Positions 1 through 33,594 of a stretch of 40,209 nucleotides of DNA are shown here, piece by piece (the stretch's first letter is position 1; every line of letters starts with the position of its first letter). A program made the translations under genes and the position numbers. The stretch lies in the sequence record OZ035809.1; one strand, 5' to 3'. This DNA comes from Kayfunavirus T147P5. The notes below the pieces were generated by a model. It did no database searches and had not been told where the DNA came from. It was given only the letters and a program-made list of their open reading frames with translations.

Positions 1-33
1 TACAAAACGATTAAAGGAGGTGGTAAAACATGA
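1..33 (+). CDS. holin (gene 17.5-like) C-terminal fragment; valid only if the window ends are contiguous (wrap-around)
   Basis: Frame 1 is open from nt 1 to TGA at 31-33 (YKTIKGGGKT*), in the same codon phase as the holin ORF that runs off the window at 40209; stop overlaps the gene 18 ATG (ATGA). Lys-rich tail fits a holin C-terminus. Confidence 0.3.
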   Translation, partial: YKTIKGGGKT

Positions 34-293
34 CGCAGATGGACTTAGAGAAGTTCCTCTTAATGCTAGATACTGAACGTGCTCGACTCATGCTGCAAGA
101 CCTGCGGGATGACTCTAAGCGTTCACCTCAGCTTTACAACGCCATTGAGAAGCTACTGGCTCGTCACAACTTCGTGCTAAGCAAGGTGTCTGTTGACGAG
201 AAGACGCTCGCTGATATGGAGGCCCTGAACGCAGAGTACGATAAGGTGCTCTCAGCGACTGAGGATAATGACACCGGGTATGGTGTTCAATAA
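30..293 (+). CDS. terminase small subunit (T7 gp18-like)
   Basis: RBS AAGGAGG at 14-20; 87 aa; shares LxMLDT...RSPQLYNAI.KLL.RH.F with T7 gp18 (recalled); lies just upstream of spanins and terminase large subunit. Confidence 0.85.
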   Translation: MTQMDLEKFLLMLDTERARLMLQDLRDDSKRSPQLYNAIEKLLARHNFVLSKVSVDEKTLADMEALNAEYDKVLSATEDNDTGYGVQ

Positions 294-295
294 GT

Positions 296-341
296 GTTAG
301 ACTCAAGGTCATTACTATATGTAGTGGCCTTTATGGTTAAC
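296..341 (+). promoter_or_regulatory. RNase III-site-like RNA hairpin (analogous position to T7 R18.5)
   Basis: Inner stem AAGGUCA(305-311)/UGGCCUU(325-331) with one G-U pair, outer stem GUUA(296-299)/UAAC(338-341), 13-nt loop; near-identical element at 16436-16481 and 9519-9565. Confidence 0.5.
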
Positions 342-354
342 ACTAGGAGGATAT

Positions 355-759
355 ATGGAAGGACAATATTTAAGCGGTGGTTACTATAAAGTAACTATCA
401 ATGGTAAGGTTCACGGGGTTCATCGGGTTAAATGGGAGATGGCGCATGGGCCAGTTCCGGCTGGCTACGTCATTGACCATATAGACCGGAACACTCTGAA
501 CAATGAGCTATCAAACCTAAGGGCAATACCTAAAGGCGCTAATGGTGCTAATACCTTATCGTCTAGAGAGTTACCAAAAGGAGTCTACTCACGGTTCGCT
601 AAAAGGCTTAACGCTACAGTGTACTATGGAGACATACGCATTGGTGGCATCAAGAGAACCCATGAGCCTACTACCAATCTACAGAAAGTTGAGGACTGGG
701 CTAAAGAGGCCCACGCAAATCTTCTTAAGGAGGTGTATGGTGTGGTTAACGTTTATTAA
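355..759 (+). CDS. HNH homing endonuclease
   Basis: RBS AGGAGG 345-350; 134 aa with HGVHRVKWEMAHGPVPAGYVIDHIDRNTLNNELSNLR (classic HNH motif); inserted between terminase small subunit and spanin, overlapping the spanin start. Confidence 0.8.
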   Translation: MEGQYLSGGYYKVTINGKVHGVHRVKWEMAHGPVPAGYVIDHIDRNTLNNELSNLRAIPKGANGANTLSSRELPKGVYSRFAKRLNATVYYGDIRIGGIKRTHEPTTNLQKVEDWAKEAHANLLKEVYGVVNVY

Positions 760-1177
760 GAGAGTGGTCCCTTGGCTAGTGGCAGGACTCCTGTTCGCCT
801 CTGGTTACTGGGTAGCTGACAATAAGTGGGAGGCTAAAGTAAATGAAGAATACATCACGAAACTTGAGGCACGAGAGAGTCAACGAACTGCTATCCAAGC
901 ACGAGTCGATGAAGTCTCAGCGGAGTGGCAGGACAAGATGTCCTCGCTGGAAGGCTCTACTGATAGGATTATTAATGACCTTAACCGCGATAACAGGCGG
1001 CTGCTCGTCAAAGTCAAGACCTCAGGTCTCAGCGAGCCAGATTACAGTAGATGCTTCCCTAATGGTCGAGTCGAACTACACCCAGAGACTTCTAAAAGTC
1101 TTATCCGAATAACGCAAGAAGCTGACCTTAAGGAGAAAGCTTTACAGGAAACCATAAGGAGGTTGCGTGGCGAATAA
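737..1177 (+). CDS. i-spanin (Rz-like, T7 gp18.5-like)
   Basis: ATG 737 with RBS AAGGAGG 725-731; N-terminal TM segment ([17 protein letters not shown]); resembles T7 gp18.5; the ORF-track start at 542 is an in-frame upstream extension without RBS. Confidence 0.8.
843..1112 (+). CDS. o-spanin (Rz1-like lipoprotein, T7 gp18.7-like), embedded in +1 frame of i-spanin
   Basis: Signal/lipobox [14 protein letters not shown]; C-terminal VDASLMVE resembles T7 gp18.7 (VDSSLMVE); fully nested within 737-1177 as in T7. Confidence 0.75.
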   Translation: MKNTSRNLRHERVNELLSKHESMKSQRSGRTRCPRWKALLIGLLMTLTAITGGCSSKSRPQVSASQITVDASLMVESNYTQRLLKVLSE

Positions 1178-2936
1178 GAAAACACCTGCTGAAAGACAGG
1201 CAGAAATGACCCAAAGGATGAGGGATGACTTCGTGTTCTTCATATTCGTTCTATGGAAAGCTCTGAGCCTTCCTGTTCCAACACGCTGCCAGATAGATAT
1301 GTGTAAGAAGCTGGCGGCTGGAGATAATCGACGCTTCATCCTTCAAGCATTCCGTGGTATTGGAAAGTCGTTCCTGACCTGTGGTTTCGTGGTCTGGAAG
1401 TTATGGAATAACCCAGACTTGAAGTTCATGATTGTGTCGGCCTCAAAGGAACGAGCCGATGCGAACTCCATCTTCATCAAGCGTATCATCGACCTCATGC
1501 CTCAGCTTCAGGAACTCAAACCTAAACAGGGGCAGCGAGATGCGGTTATCAGCTTCGACGTGGGACCTGCCAAGCCAGACCACTCACCTTCGGTTAAGTC
1601 CGTTGGTATCACTGGTCAGTTGACTGGTAGTCGTGCTGACATCCTGATTGCCGATGACGTTGAGGTTCCGAACAACTCAGCGACTCAGGCTGCACGAGAC
1701 CGTCTATCAGAGCTTGTGAAAGAGTTCGACGCTATCCTGAAGCCGGGAGGTACGATCATCTATCTGGGTACTCCTCAGAACGAGATGACCCTGTACCGTG
1801 AGCTGGAAGGTCGTGGGTACACCACTACTATCTGGCCCGCTCGTTATCCACGCGACAGGAAGGACTGGCAGTCTTACGGCGACCGTCTGGCTCCTATGCT
1901 TCAGGCAGAGCTGGAAGAGGACCCTGAGTCCTTCTACTGGCGTCCGACTGATGAAGTACGCTTCGATGATACGGACCTGAAGGAACGTGAGCTGTCCTAC
2001 GGTAAAGCTGGATTCGCTCTACAGTTCATGCTTAACCCGAACCTGAGTGATGCCGAGAAGTACCCTCTGAAGCTCCGTGACCTTATCGTAGCCGACTTGG
2101 ACCCAGCGTCCAGCCCAATGGTCTACCAATGGTTGCCAAACCCTCAGAACAAGCGTGAGGACGTTCCTAACGTGGGACTCATGGGTGACTCGTACCACAC
2201 GTATCAGACTGTAGGTTCTGCCTTCAGTTCGTACACCCAGAAGATTCTGGTCATAGACCCTAGTGGTCGTGGTAAGGATGAAACTGGCTATGCGGTACTA
2301 TACCAGCTCAACGGCTATATCTTCGCTATGGAAGTTGGCGGTATGCGTGGTGGCTATGAAGACTCTACGCTGGAAGCCTTGGCTAAGATTGGTCGTAAGT
2401 GGAAGGTCAACGAGTACGTCATTGAGGGTAACTTCGGTGATGGTATGTACCTTGAGTTATTCAAGCCTGTAGCTGCCCGTATCCATCCTGCTGCTGTAAC
2501 TGAAGTGAAGAGTAAGGGTCAGAAAGAACTCCGCATCTGTGACGTTCTGGAGCCTATCATGGGGTCTCACCGACTTATCGTTAACGCTGCTGCTATAGTC
2601 CAAGACTACCAGTCTGCCTCTGATAAGGATGGTGTTCGTAACCCTATCTACTCTCTCTTCTACCAGATGACACGTATCTCTCGTGAACGTGGAGCCTTGG
2701 CACACGATGACCGACTTGATGCGCTGGCTATCGGTGTACAGTTCTTCGTTGAGTCTATGGCTAAGGATGCCAACAAAGGCGAACGTGAAGTCACTGAGGA
2801 GTGGCTGGAGGAACAGATGGAGAACCCACGGAAAGGCTTCGAGTCCATCCACACGGAGTTCTGGGACAATGGGGTCCGGGTAACTCACGATACGGACGAC
2901 GAGCTTGGACTAGGGTCCTACGTTACGTTCCACTAG
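1167..2936 (+). CDS. terminase large subunit (T7 gp19-like)
   Basis: 589 aa; long collinear similarity to T7 gp19 ([77 protein letters not shown]). Confidence 0.95.
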
Positions 2937-16435: not shown

Positions 16436-16481
16436 GTCTAGACTCAAGGTCATTCACATCGAGTGGCCTTTATGATTAGAC
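16436..16481 (+). promoter_or_regulatory. RNase III-site-like hairpin (analogous to T7 R4.7 region)
   Basis: Inner stem AAGGUCA(16446-16452)/UGGCCUU(16464-16470) identical to the copy at 296; outer stem GUCUA/UAGAC differs but stays complementary. Confidence 0.5.
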
Positions 16482-16498
16482 TAAACGGAGGATTAACC

Positions 16499-16900
16499 AT
16501 GTTTGATTGCATTGAGTGGACCGGGTGTCGAGATAGTTTCGGCTATGGTATGCGAAAGGTCAACGGGAAGGTCCGTAGACTACATCTGATAGCCTTCGAG
16601 GAGGCGAATGGTCAGATACCAGAGGGAATGGTCGTGAGGCACAAATGCGACAACCCTGCATGCTACAATCCAGAACACTTGGAGCTGGGGACACGGGCTG
16701 AGAACAATCACGATAGAGATGTTAGAGGTAGAACCGCTAAAGGCGTGAGACATGGAAGCTCTAAGCTTACACCTGAAATAATACAAGAGGCCAAGATGCT
16801 TTACTCAGGAGGTGGCTGGACTCACCGCTCCTTAGGTAAGAAGTATGGAGTGGGTCACCGCACACTGGCTAGAGCAATTGGAGGAGAAACATGGACTTAA
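16499..16900 (+). CDS. HNH homing endonuclease with C-terminal helix-turn-helix
   Basis: Start chosen at ATG 16499 (RBS GGAGGA 16486-16491); VVRHKCDNPACYNPEHLELGTRAENNHDR; paralogous to 22094 and 33145. Confidence 0.8.
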   Translation: MFDCIEWTGCRDSFGYGMRKVNGKVRRLHLIAFEEANGQIPEGMVVRHKCDNPACYNPEHLELGTRAENNHDRDVRGRTAKGVRHGSSKLTPEIIQEAKMLYSGGGWTHRSLGKKYGVGHRTLARAIGGETWT

Positions 16901-19059
16901 GTAACGTATATGGGTCTGATATCGAGACCAACGGTCTCCTTGACACCGTGTCCCAGTTCCATTGTGGGGTCCTGATTAATGCCGAGTCGAATGAGACCCT
17001 TAAGTATGGGGTAGCGCCGATGGTCGGTATCGTCGGTGGCTTCAAAGAGTATGTACAGAAGGTGGAAGAAATTGCTGCAACGCCTACGGGTATGCTTGTC
17101 TTCCATAACGGTATCAACTATGACGTCCCGGCTATTGACAAGCTGAAGCGTTTGTACTTTGGGAAACGATTTAACTTCCCGAAACACAAGATGATTGATA
17201 CCTTGGTGCTGGGCCGCTTGATGTATCCAAACATTAAGTTCTCAGACATGGGCGCAGTGAAAGCTGGTCGTCTGCCCCCTCAGATGATGGGACGACAGTC
17301 TCTTGAGGCTTGGGGCTATCGTCTCGGTGAGATGAAAGGTGAGTACAAACACGATTACGTTGCCAAGTGCAAGGCTGAAGGTATCGAATATAAGGCTGGG
17401 GACGAATGGTTGTTCCCGTCTCAGGAGATGCTGGACTATAACGTTCAAGACGTTGTGGTCACACTGGCGTTGTTCAAGAAGTTCCTGACTGACAAGTATT
17501 ACTTCCAGTCTGAACAGTTCGCTTTCGACCAGATTTATGCGTTGCGTCTGGAACATGATGCTGCGTGGACCTGTGCGAAGATGGAACGTAACGGCTATCC
17601 GATGAACACCGAGATGGTCGAAGGCTTATATCGTGAACTCACCGTCAAACGTGCAGAGCTGCTGGACAAGCTGCGTTCGACTTTCGGTAGCTGGTATGCA
17701 CCGAAGGGAGGCAAGGAGTTCTTCAAGCACCCACGTACAGGCAAGGACCTTCCTAAGTATCCGCGAGTCGTGTATCCTAAGGTCGGTGGCATCTTTAAGA
17801 AGCCGAAGAACAAAGCTCAACGATTAGGTCTTGAGCCTTGCGAGTTCGACTCACGAGACACGATGGAAGGAGCACCATTCACGCCAATAACTTACGTTGA
17901 GTTTAATCCGGGAAGCGGAGACCACTTAGCGAAAGTTCTGATGGAGCGTGGTTGGGAGCCTGTGGACTTCACTGACACCGGGAAACCTGTAGTTGATGAC
18001 GAGACGTTGGAACACGTTAAGTTACCAGACGCAGAGGCTCAGGCTTGCGTAGAGCTGGTCCGTGAGTATCTGGTGGTCCAGAAGCGCATCGGTCAGGCTG
18101 CTGAAGGTAAGAACGCATGGTTGAAACTTGTAGGTCCAGACGGACGTATGCACGGTTCAATCAACCCATGTGGTGCAGTAACCGGACGTGCGACCCATAG
18201 TTCACCAAACATGGCTCAGGTACCGGCTAACGGTGCTCCGTATGGTGAGACTTGCCGTGGTGCTTTTGGTGCAGCGTGGAACAAGAAGGACGGTAAACCA
18301 GACCCTTGGATTCAAGTAGGTGTGGATGCTTCGGGTCTTGAGCTTCGTTGTCTGGGGAATCGAGCGGCTCCGTTTGATGGTGGAGACTATGCGAAGACTG
18401 TGGTCGAAGGTGACATCCACTGGGCCAACGCAGTCAACGCTGGGTTAGCACCTACCGTTCCACGCGATAAGTCGAACCACGACCACGATGCTTTCCGTAA
18501 TAACGCCAAGACGTTCATCTATGCGTTCCTGTATGGTGCAGGGGCCGCGAAGATTGGACTTATAGTTGGAGGTGGTAAGAAGGAAGGTGCGGCCCTGATG
18601 AAGAAATTCATTGAGGGCACACCAGCTATCAAGGACCTGCGAGAGGCTGTGCAGAACACGCTCATCTCAGAGTCGAAGTGGGTAGATGGTGAGAACATCG
18701 TGAAGTGGAAACGTCGCTGGCTGAAAGGTCTGGATGGTCGCCGCATTCACATCCGGTCGCCACACTCAGCACTTAACGCTCTACTTCAGGGTGATGGTGC
18801 GGTTGTCTGTAAGCACTGGATGGTACTGACTGAGAAGAAACTTGAAGAGGCTGGTTACGGTAACGGATGGGACGGTGACTTTGCGCTAATGGCTTGGATT
18901 CACGATGAATTGCAGATAGCGTGCCGTACTCAGGAGATAGCAGAAGATGTCGTCCGTATTGCTCAAGAGGCGATGCGCGAGGTCGGACGCTTCTATAACT
19001 TCAAGTGTGAACTTGATACGGAGGGTAAGATTGGACCAACGTGGAAAGAGTGTCATTGA
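16891..19059 (+). CDS. DNA polymerase (T7 gp5-like, family A)
   Basis: 722 aa; exo motif SDIETNGLL; pol motifs GKPWIQ.G.DASGLELR, RDNAKTFIYAFLYGAG, HDELQ; collinear with T7 gp5. Confidence 0.95.
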   Translation: MDLSNVYGSDIETNGLLDTVSQFHCGVLINAESNETLKYGVAPMVGIVGGFKEYVQKVEEIAATPTGMLVFHNGINYDVPAIDKLKRLYFGKRFNFPKHKMIDTLVLGRLMYPNIKFSDMGAVKAGRLPPQMMGRQSLEAWGYRLGEMKGEYKHDYVAKCKAEGIEYKAGDEWLFPSQEMLDYNVQDVVVTLALFKKFLTDKYYFQSEQFAFDQIYALRLEHDAAWTCAKMERNGYPMNTEMVEGLYRELTVKRAELLDKLRSTFGSWYAPKGGKEFFKHPRTGKDLPKYPRVVYPKVGGIFKKPKNKAQRLGLEPCEFDSRDTMEGAPFTPITYVEFNPGSGDHLAKVLMERGWEPVDFTDTGKPVVDDETLEHVKLPDAEAQACVELVREYLVVQKRIGQAAEGKNAWLKLVGPDGRMHGSINPCGAVTGRATHSSPNMAQVPANGAPYGETCRGAFGAAWNKKDGKPDPWIQVGVDASGLELRCLGNRAAPFDGGDYAKTVVEGDIHWANAVNAGLAPTVPRDKSNHDHDAFRNNAKTFIYAFLYGAGAAKIGLIVGGGKKEGAALMKKFIEGTPAIKDLREAVQNTLISESKWVDGENIVKWKRRWLKGLDGRRIHIRSPHSALNALLQGDGAVVCKHWMVLTEKKLEEAGYGNGWDGDFALMAWIHDELQIACRTQEIAEDVVRIAQEAMREVGRFYNFKCELDTEGKIGPTWKECH

Positions 19060-19090
19060 CCATCGAACCCAGACCCTACGCTTCCATACC

Positions 19091-19366
19091 ATGCCTACCG
19101 GATGTATCGTCTGCGTGTCCCACAAGAGGAACCAAGATGGGTACTTCCGGTACTCCATGGGAAGCTACAGGAAGGGCAACAAGTTCGCCTTCATGTTCCA
19201 CCGATGGGTGTGGGAGCAGAAGCGCGGACCTATACCAAATGGCTACGAGATAGACCATTTATGCTTGAACCGTGGGTGCTGCAACATAGAGCATCTACAG
19301 TGTATTCCAAAACGCGAACACGTCATTAAGACGAACCGTGAGCGCAAACTTGTTAAGAAGGAGTAA
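19091..19366 (+). CDS. HNH endonuclease (T7 gene 5.3 position)
   Basis: Frame open from within the DNAP 3' end; first ATG after DNAP stop at 19091 (no obvious RBS); GYEIDHLCLNRGCCNIEHLQCIPKREH. Confidence 0.6.
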   Translation: MPTGCIVCVSHKRNQDGYFRYSMGSYRKGNKFAFMFHRWVWEQKRGPIPNGYEIDHLCLNRGCCNIEHLQCIPKREHVIKTNRERKLVKKE

Positions 19367-21856: not shown

Positions 21857-22097
21857 ATCAATCAGTAAGGCTTTCAAGAAAGTGGTGAACAATGCGTTGG
21901 GGACCGTTGGTCTTGGCTCTGATGACGCACCTAAGGTTGTTGAGGCTAAGACCCCAGCAGCACCAGTGGAAGTACCGAACGACAAAGTGGAGGATGTGGA
22001 TACTGAAACAACCGCATCTGACGAGAAGAAAGTGAAGCGTTCCGGTAAGCGTAGCCTTCAGGTCTCTCGTACCTCTGGTGGCGGTATTTCTATATGA
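21849..22097 (+). CDS. gp7.3-like tail-associated protein
   Basis: 82 aa; N-terminus MGKSISKAFKK and C-terminal SGKRSLQVSRTSGGGISI resemble T7 gp7.3. Confidence 0.75.
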   Translation: MGKSISKAFKKVVNNALGTVGLGSDDAPKVVEAKTPAAPVEVPNDKVEDVDTETTASDEKKVKRSGKRSLQVSRTSGGGISI

Positions 22098-22486
22098 CAC
22101 CATGTCATGAATGGGGTGGATACTGCACCAAGGATGGCTACGGTGAAACTAGGGTAGATGGGCGCAAGGTTCGCGTTCATCGCCTAGAGTGGACGAAACA
22201 CTACGGACCCATTCCGCATGACAAAGTGGTTCGCCACAAGTGTGACAACCCTAAGTGTTTTAATATTGAACACCTAGAGTTAGGAACAACACAGGATAAC
22301 ACGGCTGACAGAGTGTCTCGTGGTCGAAGCGCCAAAGGAGAGGATAACGGTAACGCCATCCTCACTATTGATATTGTTAATGAGATTCGCGAAAGTAGCA
22401 TGTCTCAGCGCAAAATAGCGAAGACCTATGGAGTGTCACAGTCTACCGTATCTAAAATCAAACGCAATGTAACGTGGAGGTCATAA
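22094..22486 (+). CDS. HNH homing endonuclease with C-terminal helix-turn-helix (T7 gene 7.7 position)
   Basis: VVRHKCDNPKCFNIEHLELGTTQDNTADRVSRGRSAKG; C-terminal QRKIAKTYGVSQSTVSKI HTH-like; paralog of 16499 and 33145. Confidence 0.85.
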   Translation: MTPCHEWGGYCTKDGYGETRVDGRKVRVHRLEWTKHYGPIPHDKVVRHKCDNPKCFNIEHLELGTTQDNTADRVSRGRSAKGEDNGNAILTIDIVNEIRESSMSQRKIAKTYGVSQSTVSKIKRNVTWRS

Positions 22487-33144: not shown

Positions 33145-33594
33145 ATGAAGAACGGGACAGCCAGTGAGAGACTGGCAGAACTGTCAGTAACGGAAGAGTC
33201 TGGCTGTATCCGATTCACAGGCCACTTAGACGGAGAAGGATACGGAAGGATAATGGTGGCTAGGGTTAAGTATATGGCACATCGTCTCTCCTACTCCCTA
33301 AATAAGGGGCCAATACCAGATGGCTATGTTGTTAGGCATAAATGTGATAATCCATCATGCATAAATCCTGAACACCTTGAAGTAGGAACTCAGGCTGACA
33401 ACATTGCAGATAAGGTTTCCAGAGGCCGACAGGCAAGAGGGAGTGGAGCAGGAAGAGCTATACTGACAGAGGAATCTGTTAGGGAAATACGCTCCAGTCC
33501 ATTAAAAGTATCTGAGCTTTCCACCTTATACGGGGTAAGCGTCGTTTCCATACGAAATATATTGAGGAGAAAGACATGGCAACACGTGGTGTAA
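33145..33594 (+). CDS. HNH homing endonuclease with C-terminal helix-turn-helix, inserted between gp15 and gp16
   Basis: YVVRHKCDNPSCINPEHLEVGTQADNIADKVSRGRQARG; paralog of 16499 and 22094; overlaps gp16 start by 19 nt. Confidence 0.85.
   Translation: MKNGTASERLAELSVTEESGCIRFTGHLDGEGYGRIMVARVKYMAHRLSYSLNKGPIPDGYVVRHKCDNPSCINPEHLEVGTQADNIADKVSRGRQARGSGAGRAILTEESVREIRSSPLKVSELSTLYGVSVVSIRNILRRKTWQHVV

Follow-up and report, generated by a model that had tools for sequence, protein, structure and literature searches.

A probable free-standing HNH homing endonuclease gene at the gene 18/18.5 junction of a T7-like phage

Background

Homing endonucleases that join an HNH domain to an AP2 domain are said to have been described by Magnani et al. 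in 2004. An HNH domain followed by a C-terminal AP2 domain is a recognised architecture of phage homing endonucleases, and homing endonuclease genes cluster beside essential genes, terminase genes included (PMC10448857). In this work we compare such systems with an ORF that lies between the gene 18 and gene 18.5 homologues of Kayfunavirus T147P5 (sequence record OZ035809.1). The whole stretch of 40,209 nt is referred to as the window, and positions are counted from its first nucleotide. The 'IPA-HNH' genes of ICP1 encode an N-terminal HNH and a C-terminal AP2 domain (Barth et al. 2023, PMC10448857), as does the window gene, and both are free-standing beside essential phage genes, among them terminase genes (PMC10448857). 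The window gene is a canonical match to Pfam HNH_3, a profile from which the ICP1 genes have diverged too far to be recognised. The AP2-like domain of the window protein, on the other hand, is visible by fold only, unlike domains that match the Pfam AP2 profile.

I-HmuI of Bacillus phage SPO1 (PDB 1U3E) shares the beta-beta-alpha-metal HNH core with the window protein, with an aligned D-H...N...N pattern. I-HmuI is encoded in an intron and has 174 aa with helical and HTH DNA-binding modules, whereas the window protein is free-standing and has 134 aa with an AP2-like C-terminus. I-HmuI nicks one strand.

T7 gene 3.8 belongs to the same HNH_3 family (66% identity over residues 27-60 by tblastn), and T7 genes 5.3 and 7.7 are presumably HNH_3 genes at other inter-gene positions. 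The T7 HNH_3 genes and the collaborative-homing endonucleases of T3 and PhiI also lie between essential genes, but they have different insertion sites and targets, and the 18/18.5 site of T7 is empty. That homing occurs among T7-like phages has been documented (PMC10448857; PMC3428280).

At this very junction, orthologues are already labelled 'homing endonuclease' or 'HNH endonuclease' in GenBank/RefSeq. Those of YZ1 (gp38), BUCT788, TM1, IME321 (gp45), P509 (Klebsiella) and vB_EclP_26 have 133-134 aa, the same site and the same spanin overlap, and they are 67-74% identical to the window protein in amino acids. The window allele is a separate lineage, with about 72% nucleotide identity to the annotated orthologues at the same junction.

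Results

Genome context

The genome in the window is that of a T7-like phage from the K1F group, and the best matches listed are mostly Kayfunavirus-type. Kayfunavirus AN24P4 is 97.2% identical to its first 3 kb, and the AN24P4 record (OZ035739.1) begins at the same base. The window looks like a complete genome that was opened arbitrarily just upstream of gene 18, in which case the physical ends and terminal repeats would be inside the window or collapsed. The features of the locus are collected in Table 1. The original prediction of a classic 134-aa HNH ORF in the 18/18.5 gap, with its last 23 nt overlapping an i-spanin start at 737, was confirmed. The ATG of the HNH ORF sits four bases past its TAGGAGG. 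The ORF is not borne by an intron or intein: it is intergenic, has its own ribosome binding site (RBS), and both flanking genes are intact. An Rfam scan of positions 1-1300 at E<=1 gave no intron and no known RNA family. The window gp18 is 99% identical in amino acids to gp18 of pO2, YZ1 and BUCT788, and the window i-spanin is 91% identical to the pO2 'endopeptidase Rz'. The spanin frame also shows a long ORF, 542-1177; it was rejected, being an artefact of taking the first ATG in frame, since homologues begin at the position of 737.

Table 1 Features of the window at the gene 18/18.5 junction, and further HNH_3 ORFs
Feature	Position (nt)	Strand	Basis or context
Gene 18 homologue (gp18, TerS; left flank of insertion)	30-293	+	Pfam DNA_Packaging_2, E=4.7e-12
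R18.5-type imperfect hairpin	293-344	+	Fold, and sequence blocks common with T7
RBS of HNH gene, TAGGAGG, at left junction of cassette	344-350	+	Read from sequence
Probable free-standing HNH homing endonuclease gene, 134 aa	355-759	+	ATG 355, TAA 757-759
HNH (beta-beta-alpha-metal) domain, residues 1-65	355-549	+	Model
AP2-like DNA-binding domain, residues 77-128	583-738	+	Predicted fold
i-spanin RBS AAGGAGGT (727-734) and ATG (737-739), within 3' end of HNH ORF	727-739	+	Sequence, alignments
i-spanin (gp18.5 homologue)	737-1177	+	Weak Pfam Phage_lysis match, E=0.0038
Probable co-conversion tract, spanin 5' coding sequence	757-830	+	Identity to pO2
o-spanin (gp18.7 homologue), embedded in i-spanin gene	843-1112	+	Pfam O_Spanin_T7, E=6.8e-16
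TerL (gp19), T7-type	1167-2936	+	Pfam Terminase-T7_RNaseH-like, E=6.3e-38
HNH_3 ORF	16463-16900		Between primase-helicase and DNA polymerase; overlaps DNA polymerase start
HNH_3 ORF	18947-19366		At DNA polymerase 3' end
HNH_3 ORF	22094-22486		Just before portal gene; HTH-like C-terminus instead of AP2-like
HNH_3 ORF	33145-33594		Overlaps start of 1295-aa ORF at 33576

Domain composition of the protein

Pfam HNH_3 (PF13392) covers residues 21-64 of the protein with E=2e-17 (63 bits compared to a cut-off of 24.8), and PHROG 99, 'HNH endonuclease', matches at 4e-23; both matches are far beyond chance. An AlphaFold model was built from a family alignment of 23 sequences. The model has a pLDDT of 91 and two domains. 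In the second domain a three-stranded sheet is packed on a long helix, and this predicted fold is AP2-like; the Pfam AP2 profile did not match the C-terminal domain. The single sequence found no match in the PDB with phmmer. The family profile found I-HmuI (1u3e) as its sole PDB relative, with E=1.8e-7, and in the profile alignment D41, H42, N50 and N63 align with D74, H75, N83 and N96 of I-HmuI. These four residues are invariant in the alignment (23/23 sequences). The HNH motif, with its catalytic Asp-His, structural Asn and metal-binding Asn, is thus present.

Insertion junction and spanin start

As originally noted, the 18/18.5 gap of T7 is without an HNH gene: it has 94 bp and no ORF, and it contains the R18.5 hairpin. 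The corresponding gap of pO2 has 101 bp. Directly after the stop codon of gene 18, every aligned phage, T7 included, has a conserved imperfect hairpin. In the window it has an MFE of -23.4 kcal/mol (z=-3.68), and none of 200 shuffles folds as well. Its blocks ACTCAAGG...CTTTATG are invariant across T7 and the phages with and without the HNH gene, and its internal loop is in the same position as that of T7 R18.5. We take this hairpin to be the homologue of the T7 R18.5 RNase III site attributed to Dunn and Studier (1983), and consider it a putative processing site.

In alignments of occupied with empty sites, homology ends immediately 3' of the hairpin and is back about six codons into the spanin gene. 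Approximately 65 bp are replaced by the cassette, among them the native spanin RBS (GGGAGG), the ATG and the first 4-5 codons, and the last 33 nt of the cassette supply a new spanin RBS, ATG and first codons. As judged from these alignments, the cassette has swapped out the native spanin initiation region and is not a simple insertion into the gap. Relative to the HNH ORF, the spanin ATG is in frame +1 and precedes the stop of that ORF by 23 nt. Spanin translation might alternatively start from a GTG at 740, with which the overlap would be 20 nt. The 23-nt overlap would be explained by the cassette carrying the replacement spanin RBS and ATG in its own 3' end, and their position inside the cassette by the tight packing of T7-like genomes. 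An overlap of 20-23 nt is also found in YZ1, BUCT788, IME321, vB_EclP_26 and pO111, and the arrangement of spanin RBS and ATG is the same in every occupied locus and decayed remnant examined. As a consequence, any deletion of the HNH gene must spare its last ~35 nt, where the spanin RBS and start codon are.

It had been proposed from the overlap that spanin translation depends on the context of the HNH reading frame. This holds insofar as the initiation signals are inside the HNH ORF; we saw no sign of obligatory coupling. A strong RBS lies directly upstream of the spanin ATG. Folding gave no significant RNA structure masking this RBS (z = -0.07, -0.74 and +0.71); only IME321 reached a z of -2.2, and its structure is not conserved. 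RNA structure that forces translational coupling was therefore rejected as a candidate. Moreover, the spanin start is unchanged in the isolated phages fPS-53, fPS-9, PcCB251 and PP74, whose HNH ORF is broken. Because these phages retain the same start, coupling does not appear to be required, and obligatory HNH-spanin translational coupling is unlikely.

Occurrence in related phages

HNH orthologues of 60-80% amino acid identity were found in approximately 170 records, at the same junction in every case in which the locus was examined or a DNA match spanned the junction. The occupied genera are Kayfunavirus, Przondovirus and Teseptimavirus, and many of the carriers are Klebsiella phages of the genus Przondovirus. 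Distinct E. coli carriers of Kayfunavirus type number about five (AN24P4, BUCT788, TM1, YZ1 and PDP351P3). Sekstaphage-1, to which no genus was assigned in the survey, also has the gene, and so does one Enterobacter phage, vB_EclP_26. In Teseptimavirus, the genus of T7, pO111 (OR204652.1, locus 767-1171) carries an intact, unannotated 134-aa orthologue inside a 444-bp gene 18/18.5 'gap', with a 23-nt overlap with the spanin start. An IMG/VR scan returned two orthologues, one of them apparently IME321; its other matches were paralogues of 30-56% identity from unrelated contexts, and the scan left the picture of the distribution unchanged. The copies closest to the window allele are those of AN24P4 (unannotated) and of one Logan contig (P0001), both near-identical (98.5-99%), and the next match is at 74%. 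Beyond these two, no close donor of the allele was found in the databases.

The same junction is empty in at least 217 phage records, including K1F, EcoDS1 and LM33_P1. Two phages with about 97% identity to the window in those parts of the first 3 kb that align, pO2 and IME177, also lack the gene. The insertion is therefore sporadic among relatives, a pattern that the original prediction had named as telling against its own reading.

Decayed copies occupy the same site in Helsettvirus and Berlinvirus. In Yersinia phage fPS-53 and four related fPS phages the HNH gene has a 1-nt frameshift. In fPS-9 and nine related fPS phages it has an internal deletion between two copies of ATGGGAGG (columns ~164-371 of the alignment of fPS-9 to fPS-53), which suggests a loss by microhomology-mediated deletion. 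In Pectobacterium phages PcCB251 and PP74 just the last ~40 HNH codons are left. All decayed copies keep the 3' ~120 bp with the spanin start. We give about even chances to an entrenchment of the cassette, in which its last ~30-120 bp would now be part of the spanin expression signals, such that the nuclease can be lost and the tail cannot. Entrenchment would explain why the same 3' segment is kept in three lineages in which the gene decayed independently (fPS-53 type, fPS-9 type and PcCB251/PP74).

Relation to the terminase

The HNH gene is placed between the two terminase genes. In HK97-like cos phages, HNH proteins encoded beside terminase genes are packaging cofactors, as far as the accounts in PMC8861465 (citing Kala 2014) and PMC10448857 go. 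By analogy, the window protein might be a terminase cofactor like HK97 gp74, needed for or stimulating concatemer cutting and DNA packaging, and the paper on Hafnia phage Ca speculates similarly about another homing endonuclease gene, located at 18.5/19 (PMC8861465). A packaging role, which the original prediction had kept open, was not borne out, and we regard it as very improbable. The gene is missing from pO2 and IME177, which have been isolated and propagated, as well as from T7 and the at least 217 records of empty sites, K1F among them; in the fPS phages of Yersinia and in Pectobacterium phages it has become a pseudogene or has been deleted.

The comparison to HK97 gp74 points in the same direction. 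gp74 is likewise an HNH-superfamily nuclease encoded beside terminase genes, but it belongs to PF01844 and is without an AP2 domain, whereas the window protein matches PF13392 only and is AP2-like. The hhalign probability between the gp74 family and the HNH family described here was 2%, with no detectable relationship past the core motif. According to the summary of Kala 2014 in PMC8861465, the partners of packaging HNH proteins are Terminase_1 enzymes, and they act together at cos sites. gp74 is conserved and essential and acts with Terminase_1 at cos, whereas the window gene is sporadic, apparently dispensable, and beside a T7-type terminase. A Pfam search of this TerL gave no match to Terminase_1, and its one further match, to Terminase_6N, was weak and sub-threshold. 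The HNH gene is also downstream of terS, not upstream beside a cos site. Given the natural presence and absence of the gene among viable relatives, the packaging cofactor reading appears largely refuted.

Divergence, selection and co-conversion

In order to compare the history of the gene with that of its neighbours, we considered amino acid identities to the window. For YZ1 (Kayfunavirus) they are 99% in gp18, 74% in the HNH protein and 56% in the spanin; for the Klebsiella phage IME321 (Przondovirus) they are 50%, 71% and 54%, respectively. The divergence of the HNH gene is uncoupled from that of the flanking genes, and such an incongruent history points to horizontal spread. Beyond ~1400, in TerL, YZ1 and BUCT788 have 90-100% nucleotide identity to the window, with the spanin at just 56%.

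Around the insertion, the identity of the window to pO2 is mostly 95-100% on both sides (~88-91% around 121-180). It falls to 66-71% at 751-830, is back to 91% at 811 and reaches 100% at 841. It is probable that ~75 bp of spanin 5' coding sequence came along with the cassette by co-conversion, although this reading is drawn from the single comparison of the window to pO2 and ordinary mosaic recombination could look alike. The divergent right flank at 757-830 was also considered as an immunity determinant and was rejected, since YZ1 and BUCT788 have the HNH gene with a pO2-type right flank.

The orthologues are under purifying selection, with pN of ~0.18 compared to pS of ~0.8. The dN/dS is ~0.08 for YZ1 and BUCT788, the sole pair with unsaturated dS, which does not include the window copy. 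These values bear on two other interpretations. The first is that the gene is no longer active and is heading for loss as the relic of a homing endonuclease gene, comparable to the dead copies that other genera have at this site. We consider this extremely improbable, because the window copy is full-length with all catalytic and near-invariant residues intact, its fold is predicted with high confidence, and the non-synonymous rate of the orthologues is very low.

The second is that the nuclease has been domesticated, i.e. that it is no longer purely selfish and is kept for the benefit of the phage, which might use it for cutting competitors (marker exclusion) or for tuning the spanin by coupling. 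The dN/dS value of YZ1 and BUCT788 would agree with such a role, as would the spanin overlap conserved in every intact copy examined and the 3' end kept in all decayed copies. Purifying selection, however, cannot separate 'purely selfish' from 'useful', because it is also expected if the nuclease benefits the phage. Exclusion of competitors is mechanistically the same act as homing and not really separable from it. With regard to the spanin, coupling is unnecessary given the same start in phages with a broken HNH ORF, and the RBS is masked by no RNA structure. Finally, if the gene were generally useful, one would expect it more often in E. coli Kayfunavirus-type genomes, in which the few distinct carriers named above compare to well over 100 empty-site records. 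Domestication is therefore an unlikely interpretation.

Further HNH genes

Four further HNH_3 ORFs are in the window (Table 1), with Pfam E-values between 4e-14 and 3e-19. Each abuts or overlaps a large neighbour gene, and they bring the homing-type nuclease genes in this genome to five in total. A second hot spot, gene 18.5/19, holds a different HNH gene in PRF-SP1 (locus piece 1141-1578), BUCT788 (locus piece 1484-1867) and Hafnia phage Ca. The PRF-SP1 protein from this site is 44% identical to the window HNH protein over residues 9-77. In the window the 18.5/19 site (1112-1167) is empty. For Hafnia phage Ca, spontaneous loss of its 18.5/19 endonuclease gene through a 397-bp deletion has been reported (PMC8861465).

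Discussion

The comparisons above indicate that the ORF at 355-759 is very probably a free-standing, homing-type selfish endonuclease gene of the HNH_3/I-HmuI type with an AP2-like domain, located at the 18/18.5 junction. Taken together, its presence and absence, its uncoupling from the flanking genes, the co-converted flank and the series of decayed copies look like the classic signatures of invasion, maintenance and decay of a free-standing homing endonuclease.

Under this interpretation the gene would be transcribed with the late genes and translated as the first cistron past the R18.5-type RNase III hairpin. In a co-infection with a related phage whose junction is empty, the enzyme would nick or cut the genome of that phage. 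Recombinational repair from the HNH-carrying genome would then copy the gene and some of the flank into the recipient. The gene itself would be dispensable for packaging and growth. In this scheme, the target, the kind of cleavage (a nick or a double-strand break) and homing itself are what we infer from the comparative data.

The cleavage site would most likely be in or near the ~65-bp segment that is missing from all genomes with the HNH gene, with CTACGTGAAATCTGA as its core. This 15-mer is identical in the empty sites of T7 (locus piece ~581-595) and pO2 (locus piece 664-678) and is conserved from T7 to K1F-like phages. Its sequence does not differ between T7 and K1F-like phages, although gp18 of T7 and of the window are only 45% identical. 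It is absent from the window, even with 3 mismatches allowed, and from all genomes that carry the gene. Based on this loss, we regard the 15-mer as the best candidate target of the endonuclease, and its loss may likewise be what makes a genome with the HNH gene immune to its own enzyme. The target could also lie elsewhere, since free-standing endonucleases often cut at some distance from the gene that encodes them.

Conclusions

The gene would properly be annotated as encoding a free-standing HNH-AP2 homing endonuclease rather than an accessory factor of the terminase, and beyond that the assignment has little significance. The takeover of the spanin initiation region by the cassette and the survival of the 3' end of the cassette through decay are only mildly new details. 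The empty-site 15-mer offers a testable candidate target of an uncharacterised endonuclease specificity. The 18/18.5 and 18.5/19 junctions are hot spots of recombination in therapeutic phages of the genera Kayfunavirus and Przondovirus, and phages combined in cocktails could swap these modules. If entrenchment is true, this locus would be a modest, concrete example in which a selfish gene has permanently rewritten the site where translation of a lysis gene begins.
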